The notes under the pieces: model-generated
Seen by the model: only the letters and a program-made list of their open reading frames with translations
Database searches by the model: none
Told to the model about the DNA's origin: nothing
In this document: positions 2,610 to 33,179 of the stretch, in pieces
Numbering within the stretch: the stretch's first letter is position 1
How the letters are laid out: each line of letters begins with the position of its first letter
Position numbers and translations under genes: made by a program
Assembly (NCBI GenBank): GCA_964016885.1
Contig: OZ024741.1
Span: 413,168,001 to 413,232,000 of the forward strand
Length of the DNA: 64,000 nt
DNA from: Eledone cirrhosa
Taxonomy: Eukaryota
Reading direction: 5' to 3'

Positions 2610-2670
<61 letters not shown>

Positions 2671-2674
<4 letters not shown>

Positions 2675-2980
2675 ATGTATATATTGTGTATTTTGCAATA
2701 CACTGTATGCTTAATTAAAAGCATTTCGAATACCTTATGCTATTGTTTTAGAGTAGTGATAGACTCACTTACTTTAATTTTCAGCAAACAGGGGAGATAA
2801 TGCTGACAGGGTCCTGTTTCACATTTATTGATGTTATCAAAGCCAACTACTCCTCCTGTTTGCTGAAATCATGGATGTTTGGTTCTTATAGAATTCTAGT
2901 AAATAATCAGGAACTGATTATACAGAGCGGTTGCCGGTCAAGCAGAAATTGAAAATTAGAATCGGTGCTTTGAAATAGCT
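2671..2980 (-). mobile_element. Family A HHR element, one full monomer between (TA)n tracts
   Basis: Closely similar to 3217-3506; carries a partly decayed TTGATAA...GAAA...GTC motif at about 2802-2844 (-). Confidence 0.75.
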
Positions 2981-3088
2981 ATATATATAAAAGAACGATC
3001 GACTTTCGTCAAATCGAACCGAGGGAACAATGTTTCCGTTGGTCTTTCCAATTGCTAATACTATCTATCAGTCGCAACTCCCGGTAGA

Positions 3089-3208
3089 AGGAGCAACGTG
3101 AAATAAAGTGTCTTGCTCAAGGACATAACACATCGCCTGGTCCAGGAATCGAACTCACAACCCTACGATTGCGAATCCAATTCTCTAACCACTCAGCCAC
3201 ACGCGCTC
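3089..3208 (-). mobile_element. tRNA-derived SINE 5' part
   Basis: On the minus strand: A box TGGCTGAGTGG, B box GAGTTCGATTCC, then CCTTGAGCAAGACACTTT, shared with the SINE at 33635. Confidence 0.85.
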
Positions 3209-3213
3209 TCTCT

Positions 3214-3644
3214 ATATATGGATGTATATATAGTGTATTTTGCAATACACTGTATGCTTAATTAAAAGCATTTCGAAGACCTTATGCTATTGATTTAGAG
3301 TAGTGACAGTCTCACTTACTTTAATTTTCAGCAAACAGGGGAGATAAAGCTGACAGGGCCCTGTTTCGCATTTATTGATGCTTATCAAAGCCAACTACTC
3401 CTCCTGTTTGCTGAAATCATGGATGTTTGATTCTTATAGAATTCTAGTAAATAATCAGGAACTGATTATAGAGAACGGTTGCCGGTCAAGCAGAAATTGA
3501 AAATTAAAGTAAGTGAGTCTGTCACTACTCTAAGACAATAGCATAAGGTCTTCGAAATGCTTTTAATTAAGCATACAGTGTATTGCAAAATGCACTATAT
3601 ATACATTCATATATATATAGCTATTTCAGAGCACCAATTCTAAT
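3214..3644. mobile_element. Family A HHR element with fold-back (arms ~3214-3330 / ~3498-3620) plus 24-nt tail
   Basis: The right arm is the reverse complement of the left; the switch occurs at the shared TGAAAATTA; flanked by TA repeats. Confidence 0.8.
3348..3392 (-). ncRNA. Type I hammerhead ribozyme, U3-A8 variant (family A)
   Basis: ggct TTGATAA gcat-caataa-atgc GAAA cagggccct GTC agct. Stems I-III pair; stem I is extended by ttcagcaaacagg/cctgtttgctgaa. Confidence 0.8.
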
Positions 3645-3858: not shown

Positions 3859-3864
<6 letters not shown>

Positions 3865-4355
3865 AGATTTGAATGGATACAGTTTAGTTGAAAGGAATTT
3901 ATTGACACGTGTTTCTATAACAGTTACATAACCTAAAACAGCTGCTATCTACAAACTTTTAGTTATGCAGACATTCAATATTTCAATGTTATTATTTACT
4001 GTCATTTCATCAGAATAATATTACTGAGGACCTATTTAGTTTTTATAGAGAATATTCTCTATAAAAACTAAATAGGTCCTCAGTAATATTATTCTGATGA
4101 AATGACAGTAAATAATAACATTGAAATATTGAATGTCTGCATAACTAAAAGTTTGTAGATAGCAGCTGTTTTAGGTTATGTAACTGTTATAGAAACACGT
4201 GTCAATAAATTCCTTTCAACTAAACTGTATCCATTCAAATCTTTCTATTTTTCTCCGGATTACTTTTGGAACTACAACTGGAACCGTCGAGCAAACTCTA
4301 CGTGAGCTGATAATCTACTGTGTGTAATATTTATATTACAACACAACGGAAAATA

Positions 4356-4495: not shown

Positions 4496-4499
<4 letters not shown>

Positions 4500-5014
4500 G
4501 GAAAAAATGAAACGATATTTCATTTCCCACTCTTAGTACGGCTGTTACTTAAATATAAGTATGTACACGTACATACATATATGTATACCGACGTACAGTA
4601 GTATGTATATATATATATATACATACATGCACACATATATATATGCACGTATGGATTCACCGAACATTTATTATAATGCTCGGTGTGTTTGTAAACAAAC
4701 ATCCCGTATTAAGCCGTAGTGTCTAGCAACCACCGTTTCTCGTTTGTTCAACACTGACAAAGGAACGCTGTACTAGTTTCAAGCCTGTTAGCTATCGTCA
4801 GCAACGTATACCTTCCTGCCAGATTGTTGAACGTATATACTTACCTTATGCTTACCTTATATATATACTTACCTTGTTTACAAACACACCGAGCATTATA
4901 ATAAATGTTCGGTGAATCCATACGTGCATATATATATGTGTGCATGTATGTATATATATATATACATACTACTGTACGTCGGTATACATATATGTATGTA
5001 CGTGTACATACTTA
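4496..5014 (-). mobile_element. Family C HHR element with inverted arm (4874-5014 mirrors ~4553-4699)
   Basis: Homologous to 23961-24587; TA-flanked; small CTTACCTT stutters at the inversion junction. Confidence 0.8.
4766..4806 (-). ncRNA. Minimal type I hammerhead ribozyme (family C)
   Basis: cgttg CTGACGA t-agct-aaca-ggct-t GAAA cta GTA cagcg. Confidence 0.85.
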
Positions 5015-5025
5015 TATATATATAT

Positions 5026-5102
5026 AACGAAGGAAGTTTGGTAATGAACCAGGTGGACCATAACGCACCAGAGTACTCAATACTTAGGGTAGTAGAGTGG
5101 GA
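5026..5102 (-). mobile_element. Family D tail fragment
   Basis: Matches the reverse complement of 10577-10655. Confidence 0.8.
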
Positions 5103-5385: not shown

Positions 5386-5913
5386 ATATATATATATATA
5401 TATAGGGGAGGGTCATATTTGCGTAATATTGCCAGAATTAATAACAGAACACACTCACTGTTTGGTTGGTTTTCGCTTCTCGCTGTCTTTTATATATATG
5501 TATCTGCGATCTAACTTACTCGGTCCTCAATGTTGCCATTGACTGACCGGCGGTCAAAAATAATACAGATACAATATAGACAAACACATATATATATAGT
5601 TTACATAAATCTTTCGTTGCACATCTGCAACATCGTCAGTGGTGTTATATTCATTGTTCCTCCTGTTGTGTTGTATGTCTACGCCATTTTTTTTTTGTTC
5701 AGTCTGTCTATATATTTATTTATTTATTTGCTTGTTTGTTTATCTTATTTTATTTTGTCTTCTTTGCGCATGCGTTTGCGTGTGTGTATAGTGTTATGTG
5801 TGATGTGTGACTAGTGTGTATAGTGTTGTGTCTGCTGGGTGACTAGTGTGTGTTTATGTGCTTGTGTATGTATTTATTTATCTTATTTTATTTAATTTAA
5901 TTTACTTATTTAT

Positions 5914-7806
5914 TTATACTTCTCTTAGGTCAGTGTTGTTTGTTTGGGTGTTGTTGTTGTTCCACTCATTCTTTCTGTTTAGCTTTGGTCTTCTAATTTT
6001 TATTTCACTGGCCTCTCTGATTTGCCTATCTGCTGGGTCATTCCTATGTTTAGATATTATTCTAATTTCTATGTTGTCTATGTTACCGTCATGATGTTGT
6101 CTAGCATGTTCGTATAGTACTGACCCGTTTTTTCGTCCTTTTAGTTCCCCCCAGTGTTGGTCTATCCTTTCACCTATGCTACGAGCTGTCTCACCTATGT
6201 ATGTTGTTGTCGTGTTTCTGCAAGTACCCTCTGTACATCTTATGCTATAGACTACGTTTCTAGTTTTACAGTTTATCCGGGGGTTCACCTTACATATGAT
6301 ACATTTCCTATTGGTACAGTGGGTTTTCTTAAAAGGGTAGGTTTTGCTGATCAGGGATTTTATGGTGGTTCCTGGCTTTTCTACCACCTTTATTTTTAAG
6401 TGGGTCTTTCTCAGGGCCTTTCTACACTGGTTAGCTAATTTCCCTCCAGGGGTGGCGTCCACAAACATGACACTCTGATATCTCTGGTTGTCGTACCATG
6501 ATGTGGCCTTCCCTATCTTATGTCTAGCCCTATCTAAGCTATTCCATGATTTGCTCCTGTATAGTGGGCAAATTCCTTTCATGTCCAGTTCTATGAGGGT
6601 CTTATACTTTTCCATGGCTCCTTCGTATACTCTGACTCTGTCTCTTTGGTTGTAGCCAGAGAACTGCATGCGGTTGATGAAGTGTTGGATGTGTCCTTCC
6701 ATTTCTGTTGGGTCGCACATGCTGGACACATTCTTCATCACTCGTACCAAATCTGCGATCAGAATATTAAACTTAGCACTACTGGACATTGCTGAGTTTT
6801 TGAGTATCAGGTATTTGGAGGCCATGGGTTTAGCATAGTGTGAGTGGAGAATTTGGGCTCTCTCGTCTATAGTGTTAATCCAGAGTTCTGTGTCTAATAC
6901 AGGTAGTCTATTGTTAGGGTGTTTGGAAGGGAAGTCTATAGTTACAGTTATACTCTGGTGTATGGAATTAGCTATCTGCTGGATGCTTTCCATCGTGCTA
7001 CGTTCTAAATCAAACTTGTTAGTGCTCTCTAGTGGGGGTGTTCTTATAACTATATTGATATCGTCTACATAACGAGAGTACATGATGAGGTCTATGGAGC
7101 TATTATTAAGGAGATCTTTAAGACTCCTTTCCCACCATACCATGAAAAGGTTGGCAACATCGCCAGCTATGCTGACGCCGATGGCTGCTCCCTCATTTTG
7201 GGTGTAGATTTTCTCATTGAACTTAAATATGTGGCCCTTTAGGGTAGTTTTGATACTAGCCCCTATTGCATGTGCGACCATTTTTCTTACCTGATCAGTG
7301 TTTTGGGGGGTCCGTATAGCTTTGGTCCACCCAATCCACCTTCCTATGGGAGTCTTTTTAGCCATTGAGGTTATGGTGGGGGGTCTACCTCTTATAGGTC
7401 TACTAGGGCAGAAACATCTAAGGTCATGGCTGTCTAGGTAGTCAGTGTCGTAGGTAAGTCTAAGTAGGAGGCCCAGTTCGTCTGTGTCGACGTCGCAGAA
7501 CTCCACCTCACTCTCAATGATCATCTCCACACATCTTTTCACAGCAAAATCAATGTTAATGGATGGGTACAGTGACACCACATCCATGCTGCCTATTATG
7601 CAGTTGGATAGGCTCCTGTTTTTGTTGCACTCACTGATTCTGCTGAGGAGGTCCTCTGTACTTTCACATACATCTGGGGACATCTTGATTATGGGGCGTA
7701 TAACCATTGAGAGGAAGTAGGAGATCCTGTAGTTGCTAGCTATATTAGCTCCGCATACAGGTCTTGTTGGTGGTCCTATTGTCGGGTCGTCGACTGTCTT
7801 GTGGTC
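5914..7806 (-). CDS. 5'-truncated PLE reverse transcriptase + GIY-YIG endonuclease (Naiad-like, tentative)
   Basis: DHK..GPPTRPVCG, DVVSLYPSI, GAAIG, YSRYVDD, LPVLD, Cx4Cx2C linker, VVY..C..C..YIGET, two His, LNR. No internal stops. The first ~9 aa of the listed ORF come from the opposite arm. Confidence 0.93.
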   Translation of the reverse strand, partial: DHKTVDDPTIGPPTRPVCGANIASNYRISYFLSMVIRPIIKMSPDVCESTEDLLSRISECNKNRSLSNCIIGSMDVVSLYPSINIDFAVKRCVEMIIESEVEFCDVDTDELGLLLRLTYDTDYLDSHDLRCFCPSRPIRGRPPTITSMAKKTPIGRWIGWTKAIRTPQNTDQVRKMVAHAIGASIKTTLKGHIFKFNEKIYTQNEGAAIGVSIAGDVANLFMVWWERSLKDLLNNSSIDLIMYSRYVDDINIVIRTPPLESTNKFDLERSTMESIQQIANSIHQSITVTIDFPSKHPNNRLPVLDTELWINTIDERAQILHSHYAKPMASKYLILKNSAMSSSAKFNILIADLVRVMKNVSSMCDPTEMEGHIQHFINRMQFSGYNQRDRVRVYEGAMEKYKTLIELDMKGICPLYRSKSWNSLDRARHKIGKATSWYDNQRYQSVMFVDATPGGKLANQCRKALRKTHLKIKVVEKPGTTIKSLISKTYPFKKTHCTNRKCIICKVNPRINCKTRNVVYSIRCTEGTCRNTTTTYIGETARSIGERIDQHWGELKGRKNGSVLYEHARQHHDGNIDNIEIRIISKHRNDPADRQIREASEIKIRRPKLNRKNEWNNNNTQTNNTDLREV

Positions 7807-9185
7807 AGGTAAGAAAAATGGTCGCACATGCAATAGGGGCTAGTATCAAAACTACCCTAAAGGGCCACATATTTAAGTTCAATGAGAAAATCTACACCCA
7901 AAATGAGGGAGCAGCCATCGGCGTCAGCATAGCTGGCGATGTTGCCAACCTTTTCATGGTATGGTGGGAAGGGAGACTTAAAGATCTCCTTAATAATAGC
8001 TCCATAGACCTCATCATGTACTCTCGTTATGTAGACGATATCAATATAGTTATAAGAACACCCCCACTAGAGAGCACTAACAAGTTTGATTTAGAACGTA
8101 GCACGATGGAAAGCATCCAGCAGATAGCTAATTCCATACACCAGAGTATAACTGTAACTATAGACTTCCCTTCCAAACACCCTAACAATAGACTACCTGT
8201 ATTAGACACAGAACTCTGGATTAACACTATAGACGAGAGAGCCCAAATTCTCCACTCACACTATGCTAAACCCATGGCCTCCAAATACCTGATACTCAAA
8301 AACTCAGCAATGTCCAGTAGTGCTAAGTTTAATATTCTGATCGCAGATTTGGTACGAGTGATGAAGAATGTGTCCAGCATGTGCGACCCAACAGAAATGG
8401 AAGGACACATCCAACACTTCATCAACCGCATGCAGTTCTCTGGCTACAACCAAAGAGACAGAGTCAGAGTATACGAAGGAGCCATGGAAAAGTATAAGAC
8501 CCTCATAGAACTGGACATGAAAGGAATTTGCCCACTATACAGGAGCAAATCATGGAATAGCTTAGATAGGGCTAGACATAAGATAGGGAAGGCCACATCA
8601 TGGTACGACAACCAGAGATATCAGAGTGTCATGTTTGTGGACGCCACCCCTGGAGGGAAATTAGCTAACCAGTGTAGAAAGGCCCTGAGAAAGACCCACT
8701 TAAAAATAAAGGTGGTAGAAAAGCCAGGAACCACCATAAAATCCCTGATCAGCAAAACCTACCCTTTTAAGAAAACCCACTGTACCAATAGGAAATGTAT
8801 CATATGTAAGGTGAACCCCCGGATAAACTGTAAAACTAGAAACGTAGTCTATAGCATAAGATGTACAGAGGGTACTTGCAGAAACACGACAACAACATAC
8901 ATAGGTGAGACAGCTCGTAGCATAGGTGAAAGGATAGACCAACACTGGGGGGAACTAAAAGGACGAAAAAACGGGTCAGTACTATACGAACATGCTAGAC
9001 AACATCATGACGGTAACATAGACAACATAGAAATTAGAATAATATCTAAACATAGGAATGACCCAGCAGATAGGCAAATCAGAGAGGCCAGTGAAATAAA
9101 AATTAGAAGACCAAAGCTAAACAGAAAGAATGAGTGGAACAACAACAACACCCAAACAAACAACACTGACCTAAGAGAAGTATAA
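7806..9185 (+). CDS. Second, more truncated copy of the same PLE RT-GIY-YIG ORF
   Basis: Identical protein from QVRKMVAH onward except WERSL vs WEGRL; the listed N-terminus is antisense of the spacer. Confidence 0.92.
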   Translation, partial: QVRKMVAHAIGASIKTTLKGHIFKFNEKIYTQNEGAAIGVSIAGDVANLFMVWWEGRLKDLLNNSSIDLIMYSRYVDDINIVIRTPPLESTNKFDLERSTMESIQQIANSIHQSITVTIDFPSKHPNNRLPVLDTELWINTIDERAQILHSHYAKPMASKYLILKNSAMSSSAKFNILIADLVRVMKNVSSMCDPTEMEGHIQHFINRMQFSGYNQRDRVRVYEGAMEKYKTLIELDMKGICPLYRSKSWNSLDRARHKIGKATSWYDNQRYQSVMFVDATPGGKLANQCRKALRKTHLKIKVVEKPGTTIKSLISKTYPFKKTHCTNRKCIICKVNPRINCKTRNVVYSIRCTEGTCRNTTTTYIGETARSIGERIDQHWGELKGRKNGSVLYEHARQHHDGNIDNIEIRIISKHRNDPADRQIREASEIKIRRPKLNRKNEWNNNNTQTNNTDLREV

Positions 9186-9459
9186 ATAAATAAGTAAATT
9201 AAATTAAATAAAATAAGATAAATAAATACATACACAAGCACATAAACACACACTAGTCACCCAGCAGACACAACACTATACACACTAGTCACACATCACA
9301 CATAACACTATACACACACGCAAACGCATGCGCAAAGAAGACAAAATAAAATAAGATAAACAAACAAGCAAATAAATAAATAAATATATAGACAGACTGA
9401 ACAAAAAAAAAAAATGGCGTAGACATACAACACAACAGGAGGAACAATGAATATAACAC

Positions 9460-9497
9460 CACTGACGATGTTGCAGATGTGCAACGAAAGATTTATG
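9460..9497 (+). ncRNA. Minimal HHR-like motif in PLE 3' UTR; mirror copy ~5604-5641 (-)
   Basis: ca CTGACGA t-gttgca-gatg-tgcaac GAAA gat TTA tg. Core and stem II are clear; stem I is only 2 bp. Confidence 0.55.
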
Positions 9498-9764
9498 TAA
9501 ACTATATATATATGTGTTTGTCTATATTGTATCTGTATTATTTTTGACCGCCGGTCAGTCAATGGCAACATTGAGGACCGAGTAAGTTAGATCGCAGATA
9601 CATATATATAAAAGACAGCGAGAAGCGAAAACCAACCAAACAGTGAGTGTGTTCTGTTATTAATTCTGGCAATATTACGCAAATATGACCCTCCCCAAAT
9701 ATAACAATATCTGTTTCGACACACGATTTCATATAAAAAACCTCGCAAAACTAATTCATCGCCG

Positions 9765-9794
<30 letters not shown>

Positions 9795-9799
<5 letters not shown>

Positions 9800-10652
9800 A
9801 GCAAGTAAGACCCCGACGGCTGAGCTCAAGCCGTTTCGATGGCTAATTCTGGACTGAATGAAAATTTATTCTGGTATTTAAATAGCCGAGCTTATCAAGG
9901 GGTAATTCCATATATGGTCAAAGAGATAATCACCAGGATTGGTCACATCACAAGTTAGTAGTAAATCTGTGATGGCAAATTGGTGGGGAAAGGGGTAGCT
10001 AAACCTGCCGGTAGGAGAAATAGGGAGAGGGGGTGGAGTAGACCCATTCATGCGTTGGTAGTGCCGGCTACAGCTGGGCGTGAGGTCAAAGAGGATACTG
10101 AGGAGGGGGAGGGGGAGGAAATCGAAACGGTAAGTAGAACAATGAAGGGTAAAACTATAAAAGGTACTGAGAGAGAAAAAAAATAAGCAAAGTTTGGTTA
10201 CTAAGACTTAAGTCTCTCGCTATTGCTAGGCTAAAGAAATACATAAATAAATAAATAAACTCCCCCTCCCCAGTATCCTCTTTGACCTCACGCCCAGCTG
10301 TAGCCGGCACTACCAACGCATGAATGGGTCTACTCCACCCCCTCTCCCTTTTTCTCCTACCGGCAGGTTTAGCTACCCCTTTCCCCACCAATTTGCCATC
10401 ACAGATTTACTACTAACTTGTGATGTGACCAATCCTGGTGATTATCTCTTTGACCATATATGGAATTACCCCTTGATAAGCTCGGCTATTTAAATACCAG
10501 AATAAATTTTCATTAAGTCCAGAATTAGCCGTCGAAACGGCTTGAGCTCAGCCGTCGGGGTCTTACTTGTTCCTATTACCCACTCTACTACTCTAAGTAT
10601 TGAGTACTTTGGTGCGTTATGGTCCACCTGGTTCCTTACCACATTTCCTTCG

Positions 10653-10655
<3 letters not shown>
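9795..10655 (+). mobile_element. Family D HHR element, longest copy: arms 9795-10111 / 10260-10576, 148-bp spacer, 79-nt tail
   Basis: Inverted arms with about 5 differences; (TA)n on both sides. Confidence 0.88.
10468..10561 (+). ncRNA. Type I hammerhead ribozyme, U3-A8 variant (family D); mirror copy 9810-9903 (-)
   Basis: acccc TTGATAA g-ct-cggcta...tagccg-t-c GAAA cggct-tgagctc-agcc GTC ggggt; predicted cleavage after 10556. Confidence 0.82.
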
Positions 10656-13005: not shown

Positions 13006-13006
13006 T

Positions 13007-13209
13007 AACAAAGGAATTGTGGTAAGGAACCAAATGGACCATAATGCACCAGAGTATTCAATACTCAGTGTAGTAGAGTAGGAAATAGGAAAAAGTATGA
13101 CCCCGACGGCAGAGCTCAAGCCGTTTCGACGGCTATTTCTGGATTCAGAGTCCAGAAATAGCCGTCGAAACGGCTTGAGCTCTGCCGTCGGGGTCATACC
13201 TTTTCCTAT
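13007..13209 (-). mobile_element. Family D short fold-back copy (tail + ~124-bp palindrome)
   Basis: Palindrome centred near 13147; same two termini as the other D copies. Confidence 0.88.
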
Positions 13210-14249: not shown

Positions 14250-14572
14250 GATTTCTACCATAGGCACTAGACCAGCAATTTTGGGGAGGGGAAAGTTGAT
14301 TAAATGAACCCCAGTGTGTTACTGGTACTTTATTTTATCAACCCCGTAAGGATGAAAGACAAAGCTAACCTCAGCGTGATTTGAACTCAGAACATAAAGA
14401 ACCATAACTCTATGCCACAAAGCATGTTGTCCAACGCTCTACCGATTCTGCTAATCCACTGACCTTAGTGCCTCTATAATTGTTTCTACTTTTGGCACAA
14501 GGCCAGCAATTATCCCAGTGTATTACTGGTGCTTTATTTTATCGACCCCGTAAGAATAAAAGGCAAAGTTAA
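14250..14572 (-). mobile_element. tRNA-derived SINE plus partial second copy
   Basis: Shared block TACTGGTACTTTATTTTATC.ACCCCGTAAGGATGAAAG.CAAAG and B-box-like GAGTTCAAATC on the minus strand; same family at 30575 and 34657. Confidence 0.75.
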
Positions 14573-14657
14573 TGCCTCTATAATGAAAATTCAACACAAC
14601 CCTTTAATACATCCCTGAGTACTAAGTTTCGCTTCCTTCCTAATTATATGAACTAAC

Positions 14658-16876
14658 ATGATGTTGCTGCACAGTCTGTGATGTTGCTGCACAGTCTGTG
14701 ATGTTGATGTGCAGTCTGTGATGTTGATGTGCAGTCTGTGATGTTGATGTGCAGTCTGTGATGTTGCTGCACAGTCTGTGATGTTGATGTGCAGTGTGTG
14801 ATGTTGATGTGCAGTGTGTGATGTTGCTGCACAGTCTGTGATATTGCTGCACAGTCTGTGATGTTGCTGCACAGTCTGTGATGTTGATGTGCAGTATGTG
14901 ATGTTGCTGCACAGTCTGTGATGTTGCTGCACAGTCTGTGATGTTGCTGTGCAGTGTGTGATGTTGATGTGCAGTGTGTGATGTTGATGTGCCGTCTGTG
15001 ATGTTGCTGCACAGTCTGTGATGTTGCTGCACAGTCTGTGATATTGATGTGCAGTTGGTGATGTTGCTGCACAGTCTGTGATGTTGCTGCACAGTCTGTG
15101 ATGTTGCTGCACAGTCTGTGATGTTACTGCACAGTCTGTGATGTTGATGTGCAGTATGTGATGTTGCTGCACAGTCTGTGATGTTGCTGCACAGTCTGTG
15201 ATGTTGCTGCACAGTCTGTGATGTTGATGTGCAGTTGGTGATGTTGCTGCACAGTCTGTGATATTGCTGCACAGTCTGTGATGTTGCTGCACAGTCTGTG
15301 ATGTTGCTGCACAGTATGTGATGTTGATGTGCAGTATGTGATGTTGCTGCACAGTCTGTGATGTTGCTGCACAGTCTGTGATGTTGATGTGCAGTCTGTG
15401 ATGTTGCTGCACAGTCTGTGATGTTGATCTGCAGTTGGTCATGTTGCTGCACAGTCTGTGATGTTGCTGCACAGTATGTGATGTTGATGTGCAGTATGTG
15501 ATGTTGCTGCACAGTCTGTGATGTTGATGTACAGTTGGTGATGTTGCTGCACAGTCTGTGATGTTGCTGCACAGTCTGTGATGTTGATGTGCAGTTGGTG
15601 ATGTTGATGTGCAGTTGGTGATGTTGATGTGCAGTTGGTGATGTTGATGTGCAGTCTGTGATGTTTATGCACAGTCTGTGATGTTGATGTGCAGTTGGTG
15701 ATGTTGATGTGCAGTATGTGATGTTGATGTGCAGTTGGTAATGTTGCTGCACAGTCTGTGATGTTGCTGCACAGTCTGTGATGTTGATGTGCAGTTGGTG
15801 ATGTTGATGTGCAGTTGGTGATGTTTATGTGCAGTCTGTCATGTTGATGTGCCGTCTGTGATGTTGATGTGCAGTCTGTGATGTTGATGTGCAGTGTGTG
15901 ATGTTGATGTGCAGTGTGTGATGTTGATGTGCAGTCTGTGATGTTGATGTGCAGTCTGTGATGTTGATGTGCAGTCTGTGATGTTGATGTGCAGTCTGTG
16001 ATGTTGATGTGCAGTTGGTGGTGTTGATGTGCAGTCTGTGATGTTGATGTGCAGTCTGTGATGTTTCTGCGCGTCTGTGATGTTGATGTGCAGTCTGTGA
16101 TGTTGATGTTCAGTGTGTGATGTTGATGTGCAGTCTGTGATGTTTCTGCGCGTCTGTGATGTTGATGTGCAGTCTGTGATGTTGATGTTCAGTGTGTGAT
16201 GTTGATGTGCAGTGTGTGATGTTGATGTGCCGTCTGTGGTGTTGATGTGCAGTCTGTGATGTTTCTGCACACTCTGTGATGTTGATGTGCAGTCTGTGAT
16301 GTTGATGTGCAGTGTGTGATGTTGATGTGCAGTGTGTGATGTTGATGTGCAGTTGGTGATGTTGCTGTGCAGTGTGTGATGTTGATGTGCAGTGTGTGAT
16401 GTTGATGTACAGTGTGTGATGTTGATGTGCCGTCTGTGATGTTGATGTGCAGTGTGTGATGGTGATGTGCAGTCTGTGATGTTGATGTGCAGTCTGTGAT
16501 GTTGATGTGCAGTCTGTGATGTTGATGTGCAGTCTGTGATGTTTATGTGCCGTCTGTGATGTTGATGTGCAGTGTGTGATGTTGATGTGCAGTGTGTGAT
16601 GTTGATGTGCAGTGTGTGATGTTGATGTGCAGTCTGTGATGTTGATGTGCAGTGTGTGATGTTGATGTGCAGTCTGTGATGTTGATGTGCAGTGTGTGAT
16701 GTTGATGTGCAGTGTGTCATGTTGATGTGCAGTGTGTGATGTTGATGTGCAGTGTGTGATGTTGATGTGCAGTCTGTGATGTTGATGTGCAGTGTGTGAT
16801 GTTGATGTGCAGTCTGTGATGTTGATGTGCAGTGTGTGATGTTGATGTGCAGTCTGTGATGTTGCTGCACAGTCTG
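14658..16876. repeat. 20-bp minisatellite, ~110 copies, two main variants (GATGTTGCTGCACAGTCTGT / GATGTTGATGTGCAGTCTGT)
   Basis: Exact 20-bp phase across lines. Confidence 0.97.
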
Positions 16877-16979
16877 CAACTTGCGGAGTTTAGCGTCAAA
16901 AGATGAATATGTATCTAATATTCCAACATCCACAACAAAAACCAGTAGCAGAAGATTTCTTCACCTACATACCAGATGT

Positions 16980-17189
16980 GGCTGTTGTTGTTATTGTTTT
17001 TGTTACTGTTGTTGTTGTTACTGTTGGTGTTGTTACTGTTGTTGTTATTATTGTTGTTGTTGTTGTTGTTATTGTTGTTGCAGTTATTGCTGTGTTTTTC
17101 TTTTCAATTTGCTGATTTAACAATTCTGTCAACACCCTTGATTTATATACATATATATATATATGTATATATATGTGTGTGTGTGTGTG

Positions 17190-17222
<33 letters not shown>

Positions 17223-17332
17223 GTGTGTGTATATATATGTGTGTGTGTGTATATGTATGTGTGTGTGTATATATATGTGTGTGTGTATATATATATATGT
17301 GTGTCTGTATATATATATATATATATATATAT
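16980..17332. repeat. (GTT)n then TA/TG microsatellites
   Basis: Direct reading. Confidence 0.9.
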
Positions 17333-17508
17333 AAATCTCACCATGCGGTGCCAACTACCACCTTCCCCCATATACTCTGATACCATCCCCCACCACCACA
17401 ACACTCCCTCTCGTCATCCCGACCCCCACCAACAACAGAATTATTCATTAACTGATCTAAAATGTTTCATTTTAGTTTTTAATTCATGAGTCAACATGAT
17501 AATAACAA

Positions 17509-18288
17509 TGGTGATGGTGGTGGTAGTGGTGGTGGTGGTGGTAGTGTGGTGGTGGTGGTGGTGGTGGTGGTGGTGGTGGTGGTGGTGGTGCGGTGGTGTT
17601 GGTGGTGGTAGTGTGGTGGTGGTGGTGGTGGTGGTGGTGGTGGTGGTGGTGGTGGTAGTGTGGTGGTGGTGGTGGTGGTGGTGGTGGTGGTGGTGGTGGT
17701 GGTGGTAGTGTGGTGGTGGTGTGGTGGTGGTGGTGGTGGTGCGGTGGTGGTGGTGGTGGTAGTGTGGTGGTGGTGGTGGTGGTGGTGGTGGTGGTGGTGG
17801 TGGTGCGGTGGTGGTGGTGGTGGTAGTGTGGTGGTGGTGGTGGTGGTGGTGGTGGTGGTGCGGTGGTGGTGGTGGTGGTAGTGTGGTGGTGGTGGTGGTG
17901 GTGGTGCGGTGGTGGTGGTGGTAAGGTGGTGGTGGTGGTGGTGGTGGTGGTGGTGGTGGTGGTGGTGGTAGTGGTGGTGGTGGTTGTGGTGGTGGTGGTG
18001 GTGGTGGTGGTAGTGGTGGTGGTGGTGGTGGTGCGGTGGTGGTGGTGGTGGTGGTGTCGTAGTGGTGGTGGTGGTGGTGGTGGTAGTGGTGGTAGTGGTA
18101 GTGGTGGTGGTGGTGGTGTGGTGGTGGTGGTAGTGGTGGTGCGGTGGTGGTGGTGTGGTGGTGGTGGTAGTGGTGGTACGGTGGTGGTGGTGGTGGTGGT
18201 GGTGCGGTGGTACGGTGGTGGTGGTGGTGGTGGTGGTGGTGGTGGTGGTGCGGTGGTATGGTGGTGGTGGTGGTGTGGTGGTGGTGGC
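17509..18288. repeat. (GGT)n trinucleotide tract
   Basis: Direct reading. Confidence 0.97.
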
Positions 18289-18619
18289 CAGGTGTAGTGG
18301 GAGGATTAGCAATAACAGTTGTAGTTGGACTGTATTTGTTTATGAAGCTGTGGTACTGACACATATATAATAGAAAAAACAATTGAAGACAAACATACAT
18401 ATGTACACACACACACGCACGTTTGTGTGTGTGTGTAAGTGTGTGTGTGTAAGTGTGTGTTTGTGAGTGTGTGTGCACGTGCATGTTTTAAATATTCAGG
18501 TTTTCATAATTATAAAAAAGTATGGCCAATGAAAGAAAATAAACAACGAGAGAGAGAGTGAGAGAGAGAGAGTGAGAGAGAGTGAGTGAGAGAGAGTGAG
18601 AGAGAGAGAGATTAAGAAG

Positions 18620-19056
18620 TTTGCAATGATTAAGTCCCAGGTTCAATCCCACTGTCTGCCACTTGGGCAAGTGGTATCTACTCTAGACTTGGGTTAATTC
18701 AAGTATTGACAGAGACTCTTATCCCATTAGACTTTCTCTACTTGGGATTCAATAGCCTGTTCTTGTCACACAGTTATGCTGAATCTCCCTGAAAATTACA
18801 TTAAGGATGTACATGTCTGGAATGTTCAGCCTCTTCTCAGGAAGATTTAGTATGACCCATTGTGAGACAAGACTGGCCCCTTGAATTCCAGTCCATTTGA
18901 CAGGCTTCCAAACTGTCTCCATCTCCACAATTTCACTCACACAAGTTTGGGTCGACTCAGAGCTATGGTAAATGACATTTGTCCAAGATTCCATACAGCA
19001 GTGTTGAACACGGGATCTTAAAATTGTGAACAAAACTTCTTAACCATTTAGCCATG
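18620..19056. mobile_element. Cluster of decayed SINE fragments
   Basis: GGTTCAATCCC..CTTGGGCAAGT (+); CTGAATCTCCCTGA block shared with ~25428; SINE head-like end TTAACCATTTAGCCATG (-). Confidence 0.5.
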
Positions 19057-21820: not shown

Positions 21821-21846
21821 TTATATATATATATATATATATATAT

Positions 21847-21980
21847 AATGAAGGAAATGTGGTAAGGAACCAGGTGGACCATAACACACCAAAGTACTCA
21901 ATACTTAGGGTAGTAGAGTGGGTAATAGGAACGAGTAGGACCCCGACGGCTGAGCTCAAGCCGTCGGGGTCCTGCTCGTT

Positions 21981-21985
<5 letters not shown>
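21847..21985 (-). mobile_element. Family D shortest fold-back copy
   Basis: Tail plus 60-bp palindrome turning inside the stem III hairpin (GGCTGAGCTCAAGCC). Confidence 0.88.
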
Positions 21986-23212: not shown

Positions 23213-23230
23213 CTATATATATATATATAT

Positions 23231-23427
23231 AACGAAGGAAATGTGGTAAGGAACCAGGTGGACCATAACGCACCAAAGTACTCAATACTTGAGGTAGTAG
23301 AGTGGGTAATAGGAACCAGTAAGACCCCGACAGCTGAGCTCAAGCCGTTTCGACGGCTAATTCTGGAGTCCAGAATTAGCCGTCGAAACGGCTTGAGCTC
23401 AGCTGTCGGGGTCTTACTGGTTCCTAT
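23231..23427 (-). mobile_element. Family D short fold-back copy
   Basis: Tail plus palindrome centred on CTGGA-G-TCCAG (~23368). Confidence 0.9.
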
Positions 23428-23756: not shown

Positions 23757-23761
<5 letters not shown>

Positions 23762-23946
23762 AACCAGTAAGACCCCGACAGCTGAGCTCAAGCCGTTTCG
23801 ACGGCTAATTCCAGAATTAGCCGTCGAAACGGCTTGAGCTCAGCTGTCGGGGTCTTACTGGTTCCTATTACCCACTCTACTACCTCAAGTATTGAGTACT
23901 TTGGTGCGTTATGGTCCACCTGGTTCCTTACCACACTTCCTTCGTT
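23757..23946 (+). mobile_element. Family D short fold-back copy
   Basis: Palindrome centred near 23812 plus 79-nt tail; same variants as the 23231 copy. Confidence 0.9.
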
Positions 23947-23960
23947 ATATATATATATAT

Positions 23961-24587
23961 AAATGGAAAAAATGAAACGAAATTTCATTTCTCACTCTTA
24001 GTACGGCTGTTACTTAAATATAAGTATGTATGTGTACATTGTACATACATATATGTATACAGACGTACAGTAGTATGTATATATATACATACATGCACAC
24101 ATATATGTATGTACGTATGGATTTACCGAACATTTATTATAATGCTCGGTTTGTTTGTAAACAAACATCCCGAATTAAGCCATACAGTGTTTAGCAACCA
24201 TCGTTGCCCTTTTGTTCAACACTGACAAAGGAACGATGTACTAGTTTCAAGCTCATTAGCTATCGTCAGCACCGTATACTTTCCTGCCAGATGATTGAAC
24301 GTCTGAAAGTATATACTTTCCTTATGCATATTAACGGCTGAGCAGCCTAATTTGCATCTCGAGTGAGTTAATCGGCCGGGCGCACCGAAAACGATAAATG
24401 GAAAAAATGAAACGAAATTTCATTTCTCACTCTTAGTACGGCTGTTACTTAAATATAAGTACATACATGCACACACATATATATATATGTACGTATGGAT
24501 TTACCGAACATTTATTATAATGCTCGGTTTGTTTGTAAACAAACATCCCGAATTAAGCCGTACAGTGTTTAGCAACCATAGTTGCCC
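23961..24587 (-). mobile_element. Family C element, ~1.4 head-to-tail monomers (period 435 nt); HHR at 24234-24274
   Basis: AAATGGAAAAAATGAAACGAAATTTC at 23961 and 24396; cggtg CTGACGA t-agct-aatg-agct-t GAAA cta GTA catcg. Confidence 0.85.
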
Positions 24588-25571: not shown

Positions 25572-26125
25572 CGTATGTGTATATATATGTGTATATGCGT
25601 GTGTGTGTATATGTGTGTGTACATGTGTATATGTACATGTGTGTATATATATATATGTGTATATGTGTGTGTATGTGTGTATATGTATATATATGTGTGT
25701 ATATGTGTGTATATGTATGTGTGTGTATATGTGTGTGTGTGTGTATATGTATGTGTGTCTATATGTACAAATGTATATGTATGTGTGTGTATATGTGTGT
25801 ATATGTATGTGTGTGTATATGTACAAGTGTATACGTATGTGTGCTTTCTCTACCACTATAAACACTATACTAAATATCTGTATGTTTATGTATGCGTGTT
25901 TATGTCTATGAATCTATGTATGTATGTTTATGAATATATATGTGAATGTATGTCTGTGCATGTGTGTGTTTGTACATGTGCATATATATATATGTATATG
26001 TGTGTATGTTTATATATATGTATATGTATGCTTGGTTTCTTCACTACCACCAACACCAGCTCTGCTACTGTAAATATGTGTATGTCTACATTTATATTTG
26101 TATGTATGCAATATATATGTATACG
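25572..26125. repeat. TG/TA low-complexity tract
   Basis: Direct reading. Confidence 0.93.
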
Positions 26126-26174
26126 ATGCTCCTCCTCCCACCACTTACACGCTAACCCCCTCCCCCACCACAAG

Positions 26175-29100
26175 TACCACCATAACCACCACCACTACCA
26201 CTACCATCACCACCACCACCACCACTACCATCACCACCACTACCACTACCATCACCACCACCACCACCACTACCATCACCACCACTACCATCACCACCAC
26301 CACCACTACCATCACCACCACTACCATCACCACCGCTACCACTACCATCACCACCACTACCATCACCACCACTACCATCACCACCACTACCATCACCACC
26401 ACCACCACTACCATCACCACCGCTACCACTACCATCACCACCGCTACCACTATGATCACCACCACTACCATCACCACCACTACCATCACCACCACTACCA
26501 TCACCACCACTACCATCACCACCGCTACCACTACCATCACCACCACTACCATCACCACCACTACCATCACCGCCACCACCACTACCATCACCACCACCAC
26601 CACTACCATCATCACCACTACCATCACCACCACTAAATCACCACCACTACCATCACCACCACCACCACTACCATCACCGCCACCACCACTACCATCACCA
26701 CCGCTACCACTACCATCACCACCACTACCATCACCACCACTACCACTACCATCACCACCACTACCATCACCACCGCTACCACTACCATCACCACCACTAC
26801 CATCACCACCACTACCATCACCACCACTACCATCACCACCACCACCACTACCATCACCACCGCTACCACTACCATCACCACCGCTACCACTATGATCACC
26901 ACCACTACCATCACTACCACTACCATCACCACCACTACCATCACCACCACTACCATCACCACCGCTACCACTACCATCACCACCACTACCATCACCACCA
27001 CTACCATCACCGCCACCACCACTACCATCACCACCACTACCATCACCACCACCACCACTACCATCATCACCACTACCATCACCACCACTAAATCACCACC
27101 ACTACCATCACCACCACCACCACTACCATCACCGCCACCACCACTACCATTACCACCGCTACCACTACCATCACCACCACTACCATCACCACCACTACCA
27201 CTACCATCAGCACCACTACCATCACCACCACTACAATCACCACCACTACCATCACCACCACCACCACTACCATCACCACCACCACCACTACCATCACCAC
27301 TGCTACCACTACCATCACCACCACTACCATCACCACCACTACCATCACCACCACTACCATCACCACCACTACCATCACCACCACCACCACTAACCATCAC
27401 CACCACTACCATCACCACCACTACCATCACCACCACTACCATCACCACCACTACCATCACCACCACTACCATCACCACCACCACCACTAACCATCACCAC
27501 CACTACCATCACCACCACTACCATCACCACCACTACCATCACCACCACTCCCATCACCACCACCACCACTACCATCACCACCACTACCATCACCACCACT
27601 ACCATCACCACCACTCCCATCACCACCACCACCACTACCATCATCTCTACTACCATCATCACCACTACCATCACCACCACTACCATCACCACCACTCCCA
27701 TCATCACTACCACCACTACCATCACCACCACTACCATCACCACCACTACCATCACCACCACTCCCATCACCACCACCACCACTACCATCATCTCTACTAC
27801 CATCATCACCACTACCATCACCACCACTACCATCACCACCACTCCCATCATCACTACCACCACTACCATCACCACCACTACCATCACCACCACTACCATC
27901 ACCACCACCACTACCATCACCACCACTACCATCACCACCACTACCATCACCACCACCACCACTACCATCACCACCACTACCATCACCACCACCACCACTA
28001 CCATCATCACCACTACCATCACCACCACTAAATCACCACCACTACCATCACCACCTCCACCACTACCATCACCGCCACCACCACTACCATTACCACCGCT
28101 ACCACTACCATCACCACCACTACCATCACCACCACTACCACTACCATCAGCACCACTACCATCACCACCACTACAATCACCACCACTACCATCACCACCA
28201 CCACCACTACCATCACCACCACCACCACTACCATCACCACTGCTACCACTACCATCACCACCACTACCATCACCACCACTACCATCACCACCACTACCAT
28301 CACCACCACCACCACTAACCATCACCACCACTACCATCACCACCACTACCATCACCACCACTACCATCACCACCACTACCATCACCACCACTACCATCAC
28401 CACCACCACCACTAACCATCACCACCACTACCATCACCACCACTACCATCACCACCACTACCATCACCACCACTCCCATCACCACTACCACCACTACCAT
28501 CACCACCACTACCATCACCACCACTACCATCACCACCACTCCCATCACCACCACCACCACTACCATCATCTCTACTACCATCATCACCACTACCATCACC
28601 ACCACTACCATCACCACCACTCCCATCATCACTACCACCACTACCATCACCACCACTACCATCACCACCACTACCATCACCACCACTCCCATCACCACCA
28701 CCACCACTACCATCATCTCTACTACCATCATCACCACTACCATCACCACCACTACCATCACCACCACTCCCATCATCACTACCACCACTACCATCACCAC
28801 CACTACCATCACCACCACTACCATCACCACCACCACTACCATCACCACCACCACCACTACCATCACCACCACTACCATCACCACCACTACCATCACCACC
28901 ACTACCATCACCACCACTACCATCACCACCACCACCACTACCATCATCACCACTACCATCACCACCACTACCATCACCACCACTACCATCACCACCACTA
29001 CCATCACCACCACTACCATCACCACCACTACCATCACCACCACCACCACTACCATCATCACCACTACCATCACCACCACTACCATCACCACCACTACCAT

Positions 29101-29515
29101 CACCACCACCACCACTACCATCACCACCACTACCATCACCACCACTACCATCACCACCACTACCATCACCACCACTACCATCACCACCACTACCATCACC
29201 ACCACCACCACTACCATCACCACCACCACCACTACCATCACCACCACTACCATCACCACCACTACCATCACCACCACCACCACTACCATCACCACCACCA
29301 CCACTACCATCACCACCACTACCATCACCACCACTACCATCACCACCACCACCACTACCATCACCACCACCACCACTACCATCACCACCACTACCATCAC
29401 CACCACTACCATCACCACCACCACTACCATCATCACCACTACCATCATCACCACTACCATCACCACCACTACCATTACCACCTACCACCATCACCACACC
29501 ACCAACGCCACCACC
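26175..29515. repeat. (CAC/TAC/CAT)n tract with 12-bp motif CACCACTACCAT and internal block duplications
   Basis: The rare marker ACTAAATCACC recurs at ~26632, 27088 and 28028. Confidence 0.97.
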
Positions 29516-29611
29516 ACAAGTACCCCCCCCCCTCCACCACCATATATTTACCAAGAAACCTGTTTCAAAGTAAAACTATTGAAAACAAAAAACTTACAAA
29601 AACCTGTGAAC

Positions 29612-29625
29612 GTTACCATAGCAAC
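29612..29625. promoter_or_regulatory. Candidate RFX X-box GTTACCATAGCAAC
   Basis: Close match to the GTNRCCATRGYAAC consensus in a short unique island; sequence match only. Confidence 0.35.
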
Positions 29626-29894
29626 TGTTGTTGATCTACTTGTGGTTGTTGTTTAACCCTTGGTCGACCTTCTTTCAGCAACACATATCATCATCATCAT
29701 CATCATCATCATCATTATTATTATCATCATTATTTGTTATGTCCCTATTCCCAGTCTAGCATGGGTTTGACAGGTTCACCCATCACTCTATCTCTCTACT
29801 TGTCACATTCCTTCTCTGAGTCTCACTTATTTGATGTCAGCTTTTCACCTCTGCCCAGGTCTTCCTCTACTGTAGCTTCCTTCCACTGGTAGGA

Positions 29895-30473
29895 GTGGTG
29901 GTGGTGGTGGTGGTGGTTGTGGTGGTGGTGGTGGTTGTAATGGTGGTGGTGGAAGTGGTGGTGGTGGTGATGTGGTGGAAGTGGTGGTGGTTGTGGTGGT
30001 TGTGGTGGTTGTGGTGGTGGTGGTGGTTGTGGTGGTAGTGGTGGTGGTAGTGGTGGTTGTGCTGGTGGTAGTGGTGGTAGTGGTGGTGGTGTTAGTGGTG
30101 GTTGTGGTGGTGTTAGTGGTGGTTTTGGTGGTGGTAGTGGTGGTAGTGGTGTTAGTGGTGGTTGTGGTGGTGATAGTGGTGGTTGTGGTGGTGGTAGTGG
30201 TGGTGGGGGTGTGGCGGTGTGTATGTTGTGATACTATGTTGTTGTGATAGTGGCAATGATTGTGGTGGTGGTGGTGGGGGTGATAAAGGTGGTGCTGATA
30301 GTGGTGGTGGTGGTGGTGGTGGTGGTGGTGGTGATGAAGGCGGTGCTGATAGTGGTGGTGGTAGTGGTGGTGTGGCGGTGTGTATGTTGTGATACTATGT
30401 TGTTGTGATAGTGGCAATAATTGTGGTGGTGGTGGGGCTGATGAAGGCGGTGCTGATAGTGGTGGTGGGGGTG
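29895..30473. repeat. (GGT)n tract with a duplicated block
   Basis: Direct reading; GTGGCGGTGTGTATGTTGTGATACTATG occurs twice (~30210 and ~30372). Confidence 0.93.
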
Positions 30474-32432: not shown

Positions 32433-32687
32433 AGTGGTAGAACACTGAAAGGTAATATCGGTAGTGGTAGACCACTCAGTCCAGGGGAGGAGTTAGGTAG
32501 AAGTTGTTACACAACAGTTAGTTCACCATGCCGAGAACAATTGTTTCACCTTAGCGGATCCTCAGCTCGTAATGGACATGGTTATACGGAACTCTTCCGT
32601 ATAACCATGTCCATTACGAGCTGAGATCCGCTAAGGTGAAACAATTGTTCTTAGTATGGTGAACTATCTGTTGTGTAACCACTTCTA
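32433..32687 (-). mobile_element. Family G: 65-nt tail plus ~190-bp palindrome (centre 32593)
   Basis: Arms 32498-32591 / 32595-32687; TA-flanked. Confidence 0.85.
32532..32569 (-). ncRNA. Minimal type I hammerhead ribozyme (family G)
   Basis: cgag CTGAGGA t-cc-gctaa-gg-t GAAA c-aatt-GTT ctcg; stem I extended by accatgt/gcatggt. The opposite arm has lost one G of the core. Confidence 0.78.
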
Positions 32688-32704
32688 TATATATATATAT
32701 ATAT

Positions 32705-33179
32705 ATATTAATAATAGTAATAAATGGAAAATATCACTATAGCATCATCATCATCATCATTTAACGTCCATTTTCCATGCTAGCATGGGTCTGGATGGGC
32801 ATATTTATTTTATTATAATTATTTCAAGGATAGTAAATTATAGTATGCTTTCATCAGCTAAAATACAATATTTGATGTATAAGGTATACCCAAAGTATAA
32901 ACTTACAACATCAGCTTACAGCGAGCATGTCCACTGTAAGCTGACATTGTAAGTTTATAAACACTTCTTGAATTTTATTGTATTTTATCTGATGAAAGCA
33001 TACTATAATTTAGTATCCTTGAAATATGTATAATAAAATAAATATAATGCTATAGTGATATTTTCCATTTATTACTATTATTAATATTATAATAATCCAA
33101 ATATAATTTCCCTTGTAGAGTGCTTCATAACTGTTATGAACATAACTCTGTTGAACATTTATCAACAAAGCATATTACT

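Follow-up and report, generated by a model that had tools for sequence, protein, structure and literature searches.

We analysed a window of 64,000 nucleotides, the whole stretch of Eledone cirrhosa DNA considered here (contig OZ024741.1), with a focus on positions 5405..9765. This region is a young insertion of two 5'-truncated copies of a Penelope-like retrotransposon (PLE) that lie head to head in (TA)n. Pairwise alignment delimits a left arm at 5405-7294 (minus strand, 1890 nt) and a right arm at 7805-9696 (plus strand, 1892 nt) within the 4.4-kb region. The features, in window positions, are:

5386..5404, no strand: (TA)n target tract, left flank, read from the sequence
5405..7806, minus: left copy, 5'-truncated PLE, 2402 nt; its 3' end, at 5405, lacks a tail, and its 5' break falls at 7806 (DHK codon)
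5604..5639, minus: hammerhead motif of the left pLTR (mirror copy)
5914..7806, minus: putative RT and GIY-YIG coding frame, stop-free, 630 aa, N-terminus missing
7569, 7191, 7080 and 6318, minus: frame motifs YPS, GAAIG, YSRYVDD and CX4CXXC linker, respectively
6255/6201, minus: endonuclease motifs VVYSIRC/YIGET, with H in the regions of 6111 and 6096
7123, minus: left-arm private change, sense A to T, Arg to Ser
7295..7804, minus: spacer, 510 nt; unique sequence from the upstream portion of the left copy's ORF
7805..7806, no strand: 2-nt microhomology TC linking both 5' breaks without added bases, judged from native continuations in loose contig ends
7805..9765, plus: right copy, 5'-truncated PLE, 1961 nt, with a tail at the 3' end and an open frame up to 9185
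7971, plus: right-arm private change, sense A to G, Arg to Gly
9186..9696, plus: non-coding 3' region/pLTR, ending in four codons (ATG at 9685) that are probably the next unit's ORF start
9462..9497, plus: minimal type I hammerhead motif (CUGACGA, bulged U, 6-bp stem II, GAAA, 2-bp stem I); stem III self-complementary, with two G-U pairs
9543..9591, plus: stable nested hairpin in the pLTR (z = -4.1)
9697..9765, plus: one-sided tail, 69 nt
9766..9797, no strand: (TA)n target tract, right flank, common to the neighbouring insertion 9795-10655

The element and its protein

The encoded protein is 68% identical to an Octopus vulgaris protein. Its RVT_1 match (E = 1e-4) lies below the Pfam cut-off, telomerase RTs are the top two fold matches (E = 7e-7 and 1e-6), and a search of solved structures by sequence returned two weak bacterial RT matches only. 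No endonuclease appeared among the fold matches shown, and Pfam gave no match to the window's endonuclease domain; PF01541, the GIY-YIG family, is precomputed for 2 of 120 listed homologues. A GIY-YIG domain with CCHH is recognised by motif only, from VVYSIRC...YIGET with two Cys inside and a His pair that is conserved in a 21-sequence alignment. Upstream of this GIY-like motif, CTNRKCIIC at residue 497 corresponds to the CX2-5CXXC linker, a linker type also found in Nematis. The protein is that of a C-terminal-endonuclease PLE of Neptune type, a clade assignment made by motifs and not by a tree. The preliminary description had seen a young PLE, which stands, and had left its clade between Naiad and Neptune/Poseidon; the motifs make it Neptune-type, not Naiad.

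Other placements were rejected. Naiad and Chlamys elements have an N-terminal endonuclease and no canonical hammerhead, whereas here the endonuclease is C-terminal and a hammerhead is present. Penelope and Poseidon lack the Zn-finger linker that precedes the EN here, and the Hydra clade, in which CCHH is absent and the linker is CxCX5C, differs from the CCHH-type residues and CX4CXXC of this protein. The N-terminal part of the ORF is missing from both arms, so the insertion would not be autonomous.

The motif at 9462-9497 shows the hammerhead traits given in PMC4209133. It was found by a relaxed pattern (0.005 matches per shuffled element); a strict pattern missed it because of the bulged U, and Rfam lists no hammerhead within the element. 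Elsewhere in the window, at 3330-3405, Rfam has its one hammerhead match, which is weak. The tail has no second match in the window. A frame runs open from the ATG at 9685 to the tail end (27 codons), and on this basis, and by analogy, the tail is likely the ORF start. Comparison of the 27-codon peptide with the N-termini of 25 long homologues gave no significant similarity (the best shuffle p, without correction, was 0.04). A bulged hairpin at ~9708-9727 is weak (-0.8 kcal/mol), and 272 of 300 tail shuffles fold as well.

Arms, junction and recurrence of the layout

The 1.9-kb arms are 99.6% identical; their only differences are two substitutions, 7128/7971 and 7123/7976, and the length of one A-run (10 vs 12 nt). 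Both frames are free of stops, and the 510-nt spacer lies inside the 641-codon frame of the left arm (7839..5914). The preliminary description had reported the inverted pair with these few differences, as well as a spacer that extends the ORF of the tail-less arm, and the alignment and ORFs confirm it on both points. It had also likened the spacer of 9795-10655 to the tail-less arm, a weak likeness that concerns composition only.

Contigs of all four runs carry A at 7971, those of three of four runs in a further comparison carry the right-arm base at 7123, and no alternative base occurs at 7976 among the contig pieces listed, which points to one private change per arm on a common ERR background. 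ERS and EGR thus appear, in the runs tested, to be private changes of the family's ERR state, and the earlier suggestion that they might mark separate subfamilies is not supported there. Both arms hold bases that are absent from all or most contigs of other runs, at 7937, 7995 and 7997 and further at 8887/6212, 9005, 9056 and 9099, which indicates one source lineage for both. The distance between the private changes is 5 nt (chance 0.005). The right-arm A to G falls on the sense strand in an AAG context, and seven other arm pairs showed no clear A-to-G excess among their differences. The same change also resembles a homopolymer shift.

In loose contig ends of related copies, native sequence runs on behind 7806 and before 7805, and the join is therefore an exact 2-nt overlap with zero added bases. 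No palindrome was found at the main junction. None of the listed contig pieces of the four runs, which may not come from the source animal, spans it. Both ends of the insertion are flush with (TA)n, in which a target duplication is not readable.

The same layout recurs. Among the 14 inverted pairs of the unmasked window, 10 show the head-to-head PLE signature. In the neighbouring family, a single pair of fixed sites marks the ends of all five two-armed copies, and copy-specific variants are common to both arms; in the main insertion, the two 3' ends are 69 nt apart in element coordinates. The longer arm is the tail-less one in 5405..9765, 23230-23427, 13006-13209 and metagenome locus L033, and the tailed one in 4497-5020, 21846-21985 and 23757-23947, although in the short copies the lengths differ by only 2-14 nt, by eye. 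The tail also sits on the shorter arm in short copies with arms of ~60 nt. L033, the only one of 33 metagenome loci examined with a readable head-to-head unit, holds an unrelated PLE with a ~30-nt tail on its short arm and an intact target duplication; loci L029 and L031 have inverted pieces at contig ends. Perfect zero-spacer palindromes are also present in the window, e.g., 3859-4248. The geometry is not unusual: it is the known PLE insertion signature, which recurs in the window and in an unrelated PLE. The preliminary description was right that simple fold-back, with one sense-templated cDNA, does not fit, but it overstated how special the geometry is.

Origin of the inverted pair

Published PLE insertions characteristically carry an inverted 5'-truncated copy at the 5' end and a tail at either end, often only one (PMC8557442), and this is the layout found here. 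A PLE protein studied in vitro cleaves both target strands, extends them and begins at two RNA sites, which set the limits of the tail; a dimer is predicted for this protein (PMC11167929). We consider it probable that both target strands were nicked by the element's endonuclease and that each of the exposed ends served as primer for a separate cDNA of the element's RNA. The GIY-YIG domain would nick both strands of (TA)n; priming by one end at the downstream RNA start site (9765) would yield the tailed arm, and priming by the second end at the upstream one (9696) would yield the tail-less arm. Each cDNA would terminate independently of the other, with 510 nt between the two stops. Because both have the same polarity, they could not anneal, so host end-joining would link them at TC, with gaps filled. 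Either arm could be the longer, and the template may be one RNA copied twice or two sibling RNAs. The fixed sites of the neighbouring family, the short-arm tail of L033 and the lack of a palindrome at the main junction favour this two-ended priming, as does a pLTR and tail containing the first ORF codons (PMC3846280). The proposal of the preliminary description, a pair of cDNAs primed from opposite target strands, is still the best reading, and the microhomology it noted at TC proved exact. Against two-ended priming, the junction is unspanned in the listed pieces, which leaves room for misassembly or a flipped spacer; self-priming would account equally well for zero-spacer palindromes and near-equal 5' ends; the spacing of the private changes is unexplained; and the in vitro system is a Poseidon element, not Neptune, with no joined product.

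As a refinement rather than an exclusive alternative, two distinct RNAs could have sat in the protein dimer, one per arm, and the right-arm A to G may be an edited adenosine. Heavy A-to-I editing is a feature of cephalopods. The 1.89 kb of template common to both arms would be hard to reconcile with a single RNA if the first cDNA was not displaced, the arms do differ at two sites, and a dimer is predicted for PAc (PMC11167929). We nevertheless think two RNAs unlikely: the shared bases speak for one lineage, neither allele is seen as a subfamily, a single A-to-G site proves nothing, the seven other arm pairs show no clear A/G excess, and the two changes could equally stem from RT error, later mutation or consensus error. 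The fuller version, in which each nicked strand is copied from a fixed start site by a dimer with two RNAs and A-to-I editing marks the templates, is doubtful.

Self-priming has been proposed in print for PLE inverted junctions (PMC3846280). Here, a cDNA from the tailed end would fold at TC and copy itself into a nested structure, and recombination or the assembler would later invert the spacer, whose orientation is fragile between 1.9-kb arms of such identity. The palindromes in the window are compatible with this, and a double change in one arm followed by exchange between the two sites would yield the ERS/EGR pattern. That exchange, however, must fall inside a 4-nt interval, and an extra event is required. 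The main junction has no palindrome, and the shorter-arm tails of L033, with its duplication intact, and of the short copies also disagree, so we regard fold-back and inversion as improbable.

A collapsed or misjoined repeat is a less credible explanation still. The family is of high copy number, the junction is unbridged in the listed pieces, the A-run and the homopolymer-like change could be assembly errors, and assemblies are known to struggle with PLE structures (PMC8557442), but the ends are meaningful (a tail in frame from ATG, flush TA tracts), the join is an exact 2 nt, and many short insertions easily spanned by reads show the same layout. The preliminary description's speculation that self-complementary hammerhead stem III brings two RNAs together, in line with a proposal that PLE hammerheads act as dimers (PMC4209133), is very improbable, because the duplex is too weak (0.0 kcal/mol for the 6-mer, -1.8 for 12 nt), a self-complementary stem III is generic to metazoan PLE hammerheads, catalytic mutants leave in vitro insertion unchanged (PMC11167929), and Naiads form the same inverted structures without canonical hammerheads (PMC8557442). 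Stem II arms could pair more strongly in trans (-22.8 over 51 nt), in competition with the hairpin.

Relation to known elements and significance

In L1 twin priming, the second target strand primes a second cDNA, and the two join head to head at microhomology; the arms there meet end to end or share little overlap, and annealing of the inner primer is a chance event. The present insertion differs in its 1.89-kb arm overlap and fixed start sites. It resembles the Neptune clade in its RT, CX2-5CXXC linker, C-terminal GIY-YIG with CCHH, hammerhead in the pLTR, microsatellite target, inverted 5'-truncated copy and one-sided tail (PMC8557442). The tail is 69 nt here and 30-40 nt there, and both copies here are truncated, without a full-length unit or direct pLTR. 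Partial tandems with direct pLTRs are typical of PLEs but not obligatory (PMC8557442), and no direct repeat was found in 5405..9765. Naiads, including Naiad_Obim and Naiad_Ovul, share the (TA)n target, inverted layout, tail and octopus hosts, and differ in endonuclease position and hammerhead as noted above (PMC8557442).

Pen2a_Av and its relatives in Adineta vaga likewise have a head-to-head inverted pLTR, an optional tail and first ORF codons encoded by pLTR plus tail, but their inverted segment measures ~180-210 bp, its junctions are palindromic and target duplications are evident (PMC3846280), in contrast to the long arms, microhomology and unreadable duplication here. Poseidon_Ac has two RT start sites in the 5' part of its ORF, cuts and extends both strands and uses an AT-rich target, as proposed here; it belongs to a different clade, joining of two cDNAs was not shown, and its start sites lie 111-118 nt into the ORF (PMC11167929), whereas those proposed here follow the putative ATG by ~12 and 81 nt.

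The origin of PLE inverted structures is still called open (PMC8557442). The layout is already published and a single copy adds little by itself, but copies with intact frames and exact junctions provide clean footprints for two-ended versus self-priming, and a young Neptune family would be a candidate for in vitro work, so far confined to Poseidon. If dimers with two RNAs and editing were confirmed, arm differences would record both RNAs, and two-ended PLE integration could be counted genome-wide.

Structure and coding content of the inverted pair

Base-by-base alignment resolved the young Penelope-like element (PLE) at 5405-9765 into two head-to-head copies:

5405-7294, minus strand: left arm, without tail
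7295-7804: spacer
7805-9696, plus strand: right arm
9697-9765: 69-base tail, extra on the right arm

The arms differ by two substitutions, 5 nt apart (7128/7971 and 7123/7976), and by the length of one A-run (10 in one arm versus 12 in the other), which bears out the inverted pair of the preliminary description. Its assignment of the 510-nt spacer to the tail-less arm also held, since the left arm's stop-free frame includes it. The tail has no second match elsewhere in the window. Because (TA)n adjoins both ends, any target duplication is unreadable. In contigs of related copies, native sequence runs on behind 7806 and before 7805, and the join is therefore an exact 2-nt overlap without added bases. 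A strong 5′ splice-site-like word (CAG/GTAAGA) lies in the coding frame at 7806-7814, with the right arm's 5′ break just before it, which may be chance.

The best of 306 protein matches was to an Octopus vulgaris protein (68% identity). With long homologues extending to about 1050-1120 aa, the 630-aa frame is missing an N-terminal part. Telomerase reverse transcriptases were the closest folds to the predicted protein model. A CX4CXXC linker lies upstream of the C-terminal GIY-YIG-type motif, in which Cys and His are conserved; a Pfam search gave no match for this endonuclease. Judged from sequence by the criteria in the accessible part of PMC8557442, the element is assigned to the Neptune type or Nematis and not to Naiad, Poseidon or Hydra.

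The 3′ region of each arm contains a minimal hammerhead with a bulged U, a 6-bp stem II, a self-complementary stem III and a 2-bp stem I, the same traits as the PLE hammerheads in the available text of PMC4209133. A very stable nested hairpin (z -4.1; 0/200 shuffles) occupies 9543-9591 in the 3′ non-coding terminal-repeat region (pLTR) and is a possible protein-binding or promoter element. The frame from an ATG at 9685 is open to the tail end (4 codons in the arm and 23 in the tail), paralleling elements whose first 22 codons are carried by pLTR and tail (PMC3846280, accessible part). The tail-frame peptide showed no significant homology to other N-termini.

Recurrence of the layout

According to the accessible text of PMC8557442, the PLE 5′ end carries an inverted, 5′-truncated copy, and a tail of 30-40 bp may sit at either end, frequently at just one of them; that of PMC8969392 gives the same layout in brief. 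With satellites masked (about 23.6 kb left), 10 of the 14 inverted pairs in the window, among them the main element, directly abut (TA)n at one end and extend ~53-110 nt further at the other. Of the remaining four, one is a cross-match between two copies, one lacks an extension, one has TA only at a distance from either side, and one shows no relation to TA. The geometry is not unusual; it is a known PLE insertion signature. Some insertions carry the tail on the longer arm, others on the shorter. Among 33 metagenome loci, one distant PLE (L033:253-2001) bears a ~30-nt tail on its short inverted arm of ~105 nt; both of its arms contain a hammerhead, and a target duplication of 11-14 nt is present. 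Other repeats in the window are:

9795-10655, 13006-13209, 21846-21985, 23230-23427, 23757-23947; remnant 5013-5101: non-coding family
4497-5020 and 23946-24578: another two-armed family, ~430-nt tandem unit
3859-4348: perfect 195+195-nt palindrome without spacer, extended by ~100 nt on one side and flanked by (TA)n tracts
1-1480, 14500-19000, 26000-30300, 35259-64000: large satellite arrays

The non-coding family comprises (TA)n insertions with head-to-head arms; the same two 3′ end sites, about 78 nt apart, recur in all five two-armed copies, each with private variants common to both its arms, and three copies share nearly the same 5′ break. A pattern search found no hammerhead in this family. 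The junction of 4497-5020 (4852-4873) contains filler of about 22 nt, repeated locally, which resembles polymerase-theta joining. Hammerhead-like CTGATGA cores occur in the palindrome arms. At 2666-3644, a ~300-nt unit is present in direct and inverted copies, retrozyme-like, with a weak Rfam hammerhead match (3330-3405, E 0.25). Two further, older inverted pairs (79-98% identity) adjoin (TA)n at 32434-33140, one with hammerhead-like cores. The satellite arrays include one with a 20-nt unit near 14500, and a degenerate ~27-32-nt unit takes up about 29 kb.

Origin of the pair

One folded cDNA is unable to put a sense-strand tail on the shorter arm, and simple fold-back, as already argued in the preliminary description, does not fit. 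Work on a Poseidon protein (PMC11167929, accessible part) shows that it cuts both target strands in vitro and extends them, with synthesis beginning at two positions on the RNA that delimit the tail. The simplest interpretation, which we consider fairly probable, is that the main element represents two cDNAs: one would be primed on each target strand from its own RNA start site, both would end independently, and host repair would link them at TC, this joining being a proposed step. On this reading, the short copies would owe their fixed, near-equal 5′ ends to run-off at a defined end of the RNA. Two separate RNAs as templates, a refinement of this reading, seem rather unlikely. Zero-spacer palindromes fit self-priming and count against two cDNAs. 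Fold-back with the spacer flipped later or by assembly we regard as improbable. None of the listed contig pieces bridges the junction, a further point against two cDNAs, and pure misassembly has a slim chance. Hammerhead pairing that brings two RNAs together is very improbable.

Our literature search did not find the two-cDNA joining model stated outright; older PLE reviews may contain it. Nothing on this geometry appears in the accessible part of a preprint from 2026 that deals with retrozymes and PLEs (10.64898/2026.07.22.740005).

Alleles, source lineage and age

Contigs of four sequencing runs were compared over 7720-8040. A at 7971 accounted for essentially all depth (197063/197151, 14.3/14.3, 101.9/101.9 and 214/214), and no alternative base was listed at 7976 with a cut-off of 1%. 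At 7123, outside that interval, the right-arm base took all depth in three of four runs, the fourth being without cover. The family state is therefore ERR, with one private change per arm (ERS left, EGR right). The separate ERS and EGR subfamilies envisaged earlier find no support in these runs; contigs drop rare variants, and subfamilies in the source genome are possible. Several bases common to both arms are mostly missing from the runs, which places both arms in one source lineage; the runs are probably from other than the source animal. Runs that bear several different organism labels contain the family, and their contig pieces show 99-100% identity. In one contig the sequence steps back by 165 nt and gains 11 bases, a partial tandem; another stops at 9710, a possible third end site, before (TA)n.

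At the octopus rate in the accessible text of PMC13282606, the insertion is about 0.15 Myr old if both changes are post-insertion, and younger if both are copying errors. The probability that two independent changes would fall within 5 nt of each other is 0.005; the cluster could reflect a local error hot spot, a purine-run consensus error, or a double change followed by arm exchange. The main element is a young PLE insertion carrying the known insertion signature, and its continuing interest lies in the clustered private changes and in whether one or two RNA templates are used genome-wide.
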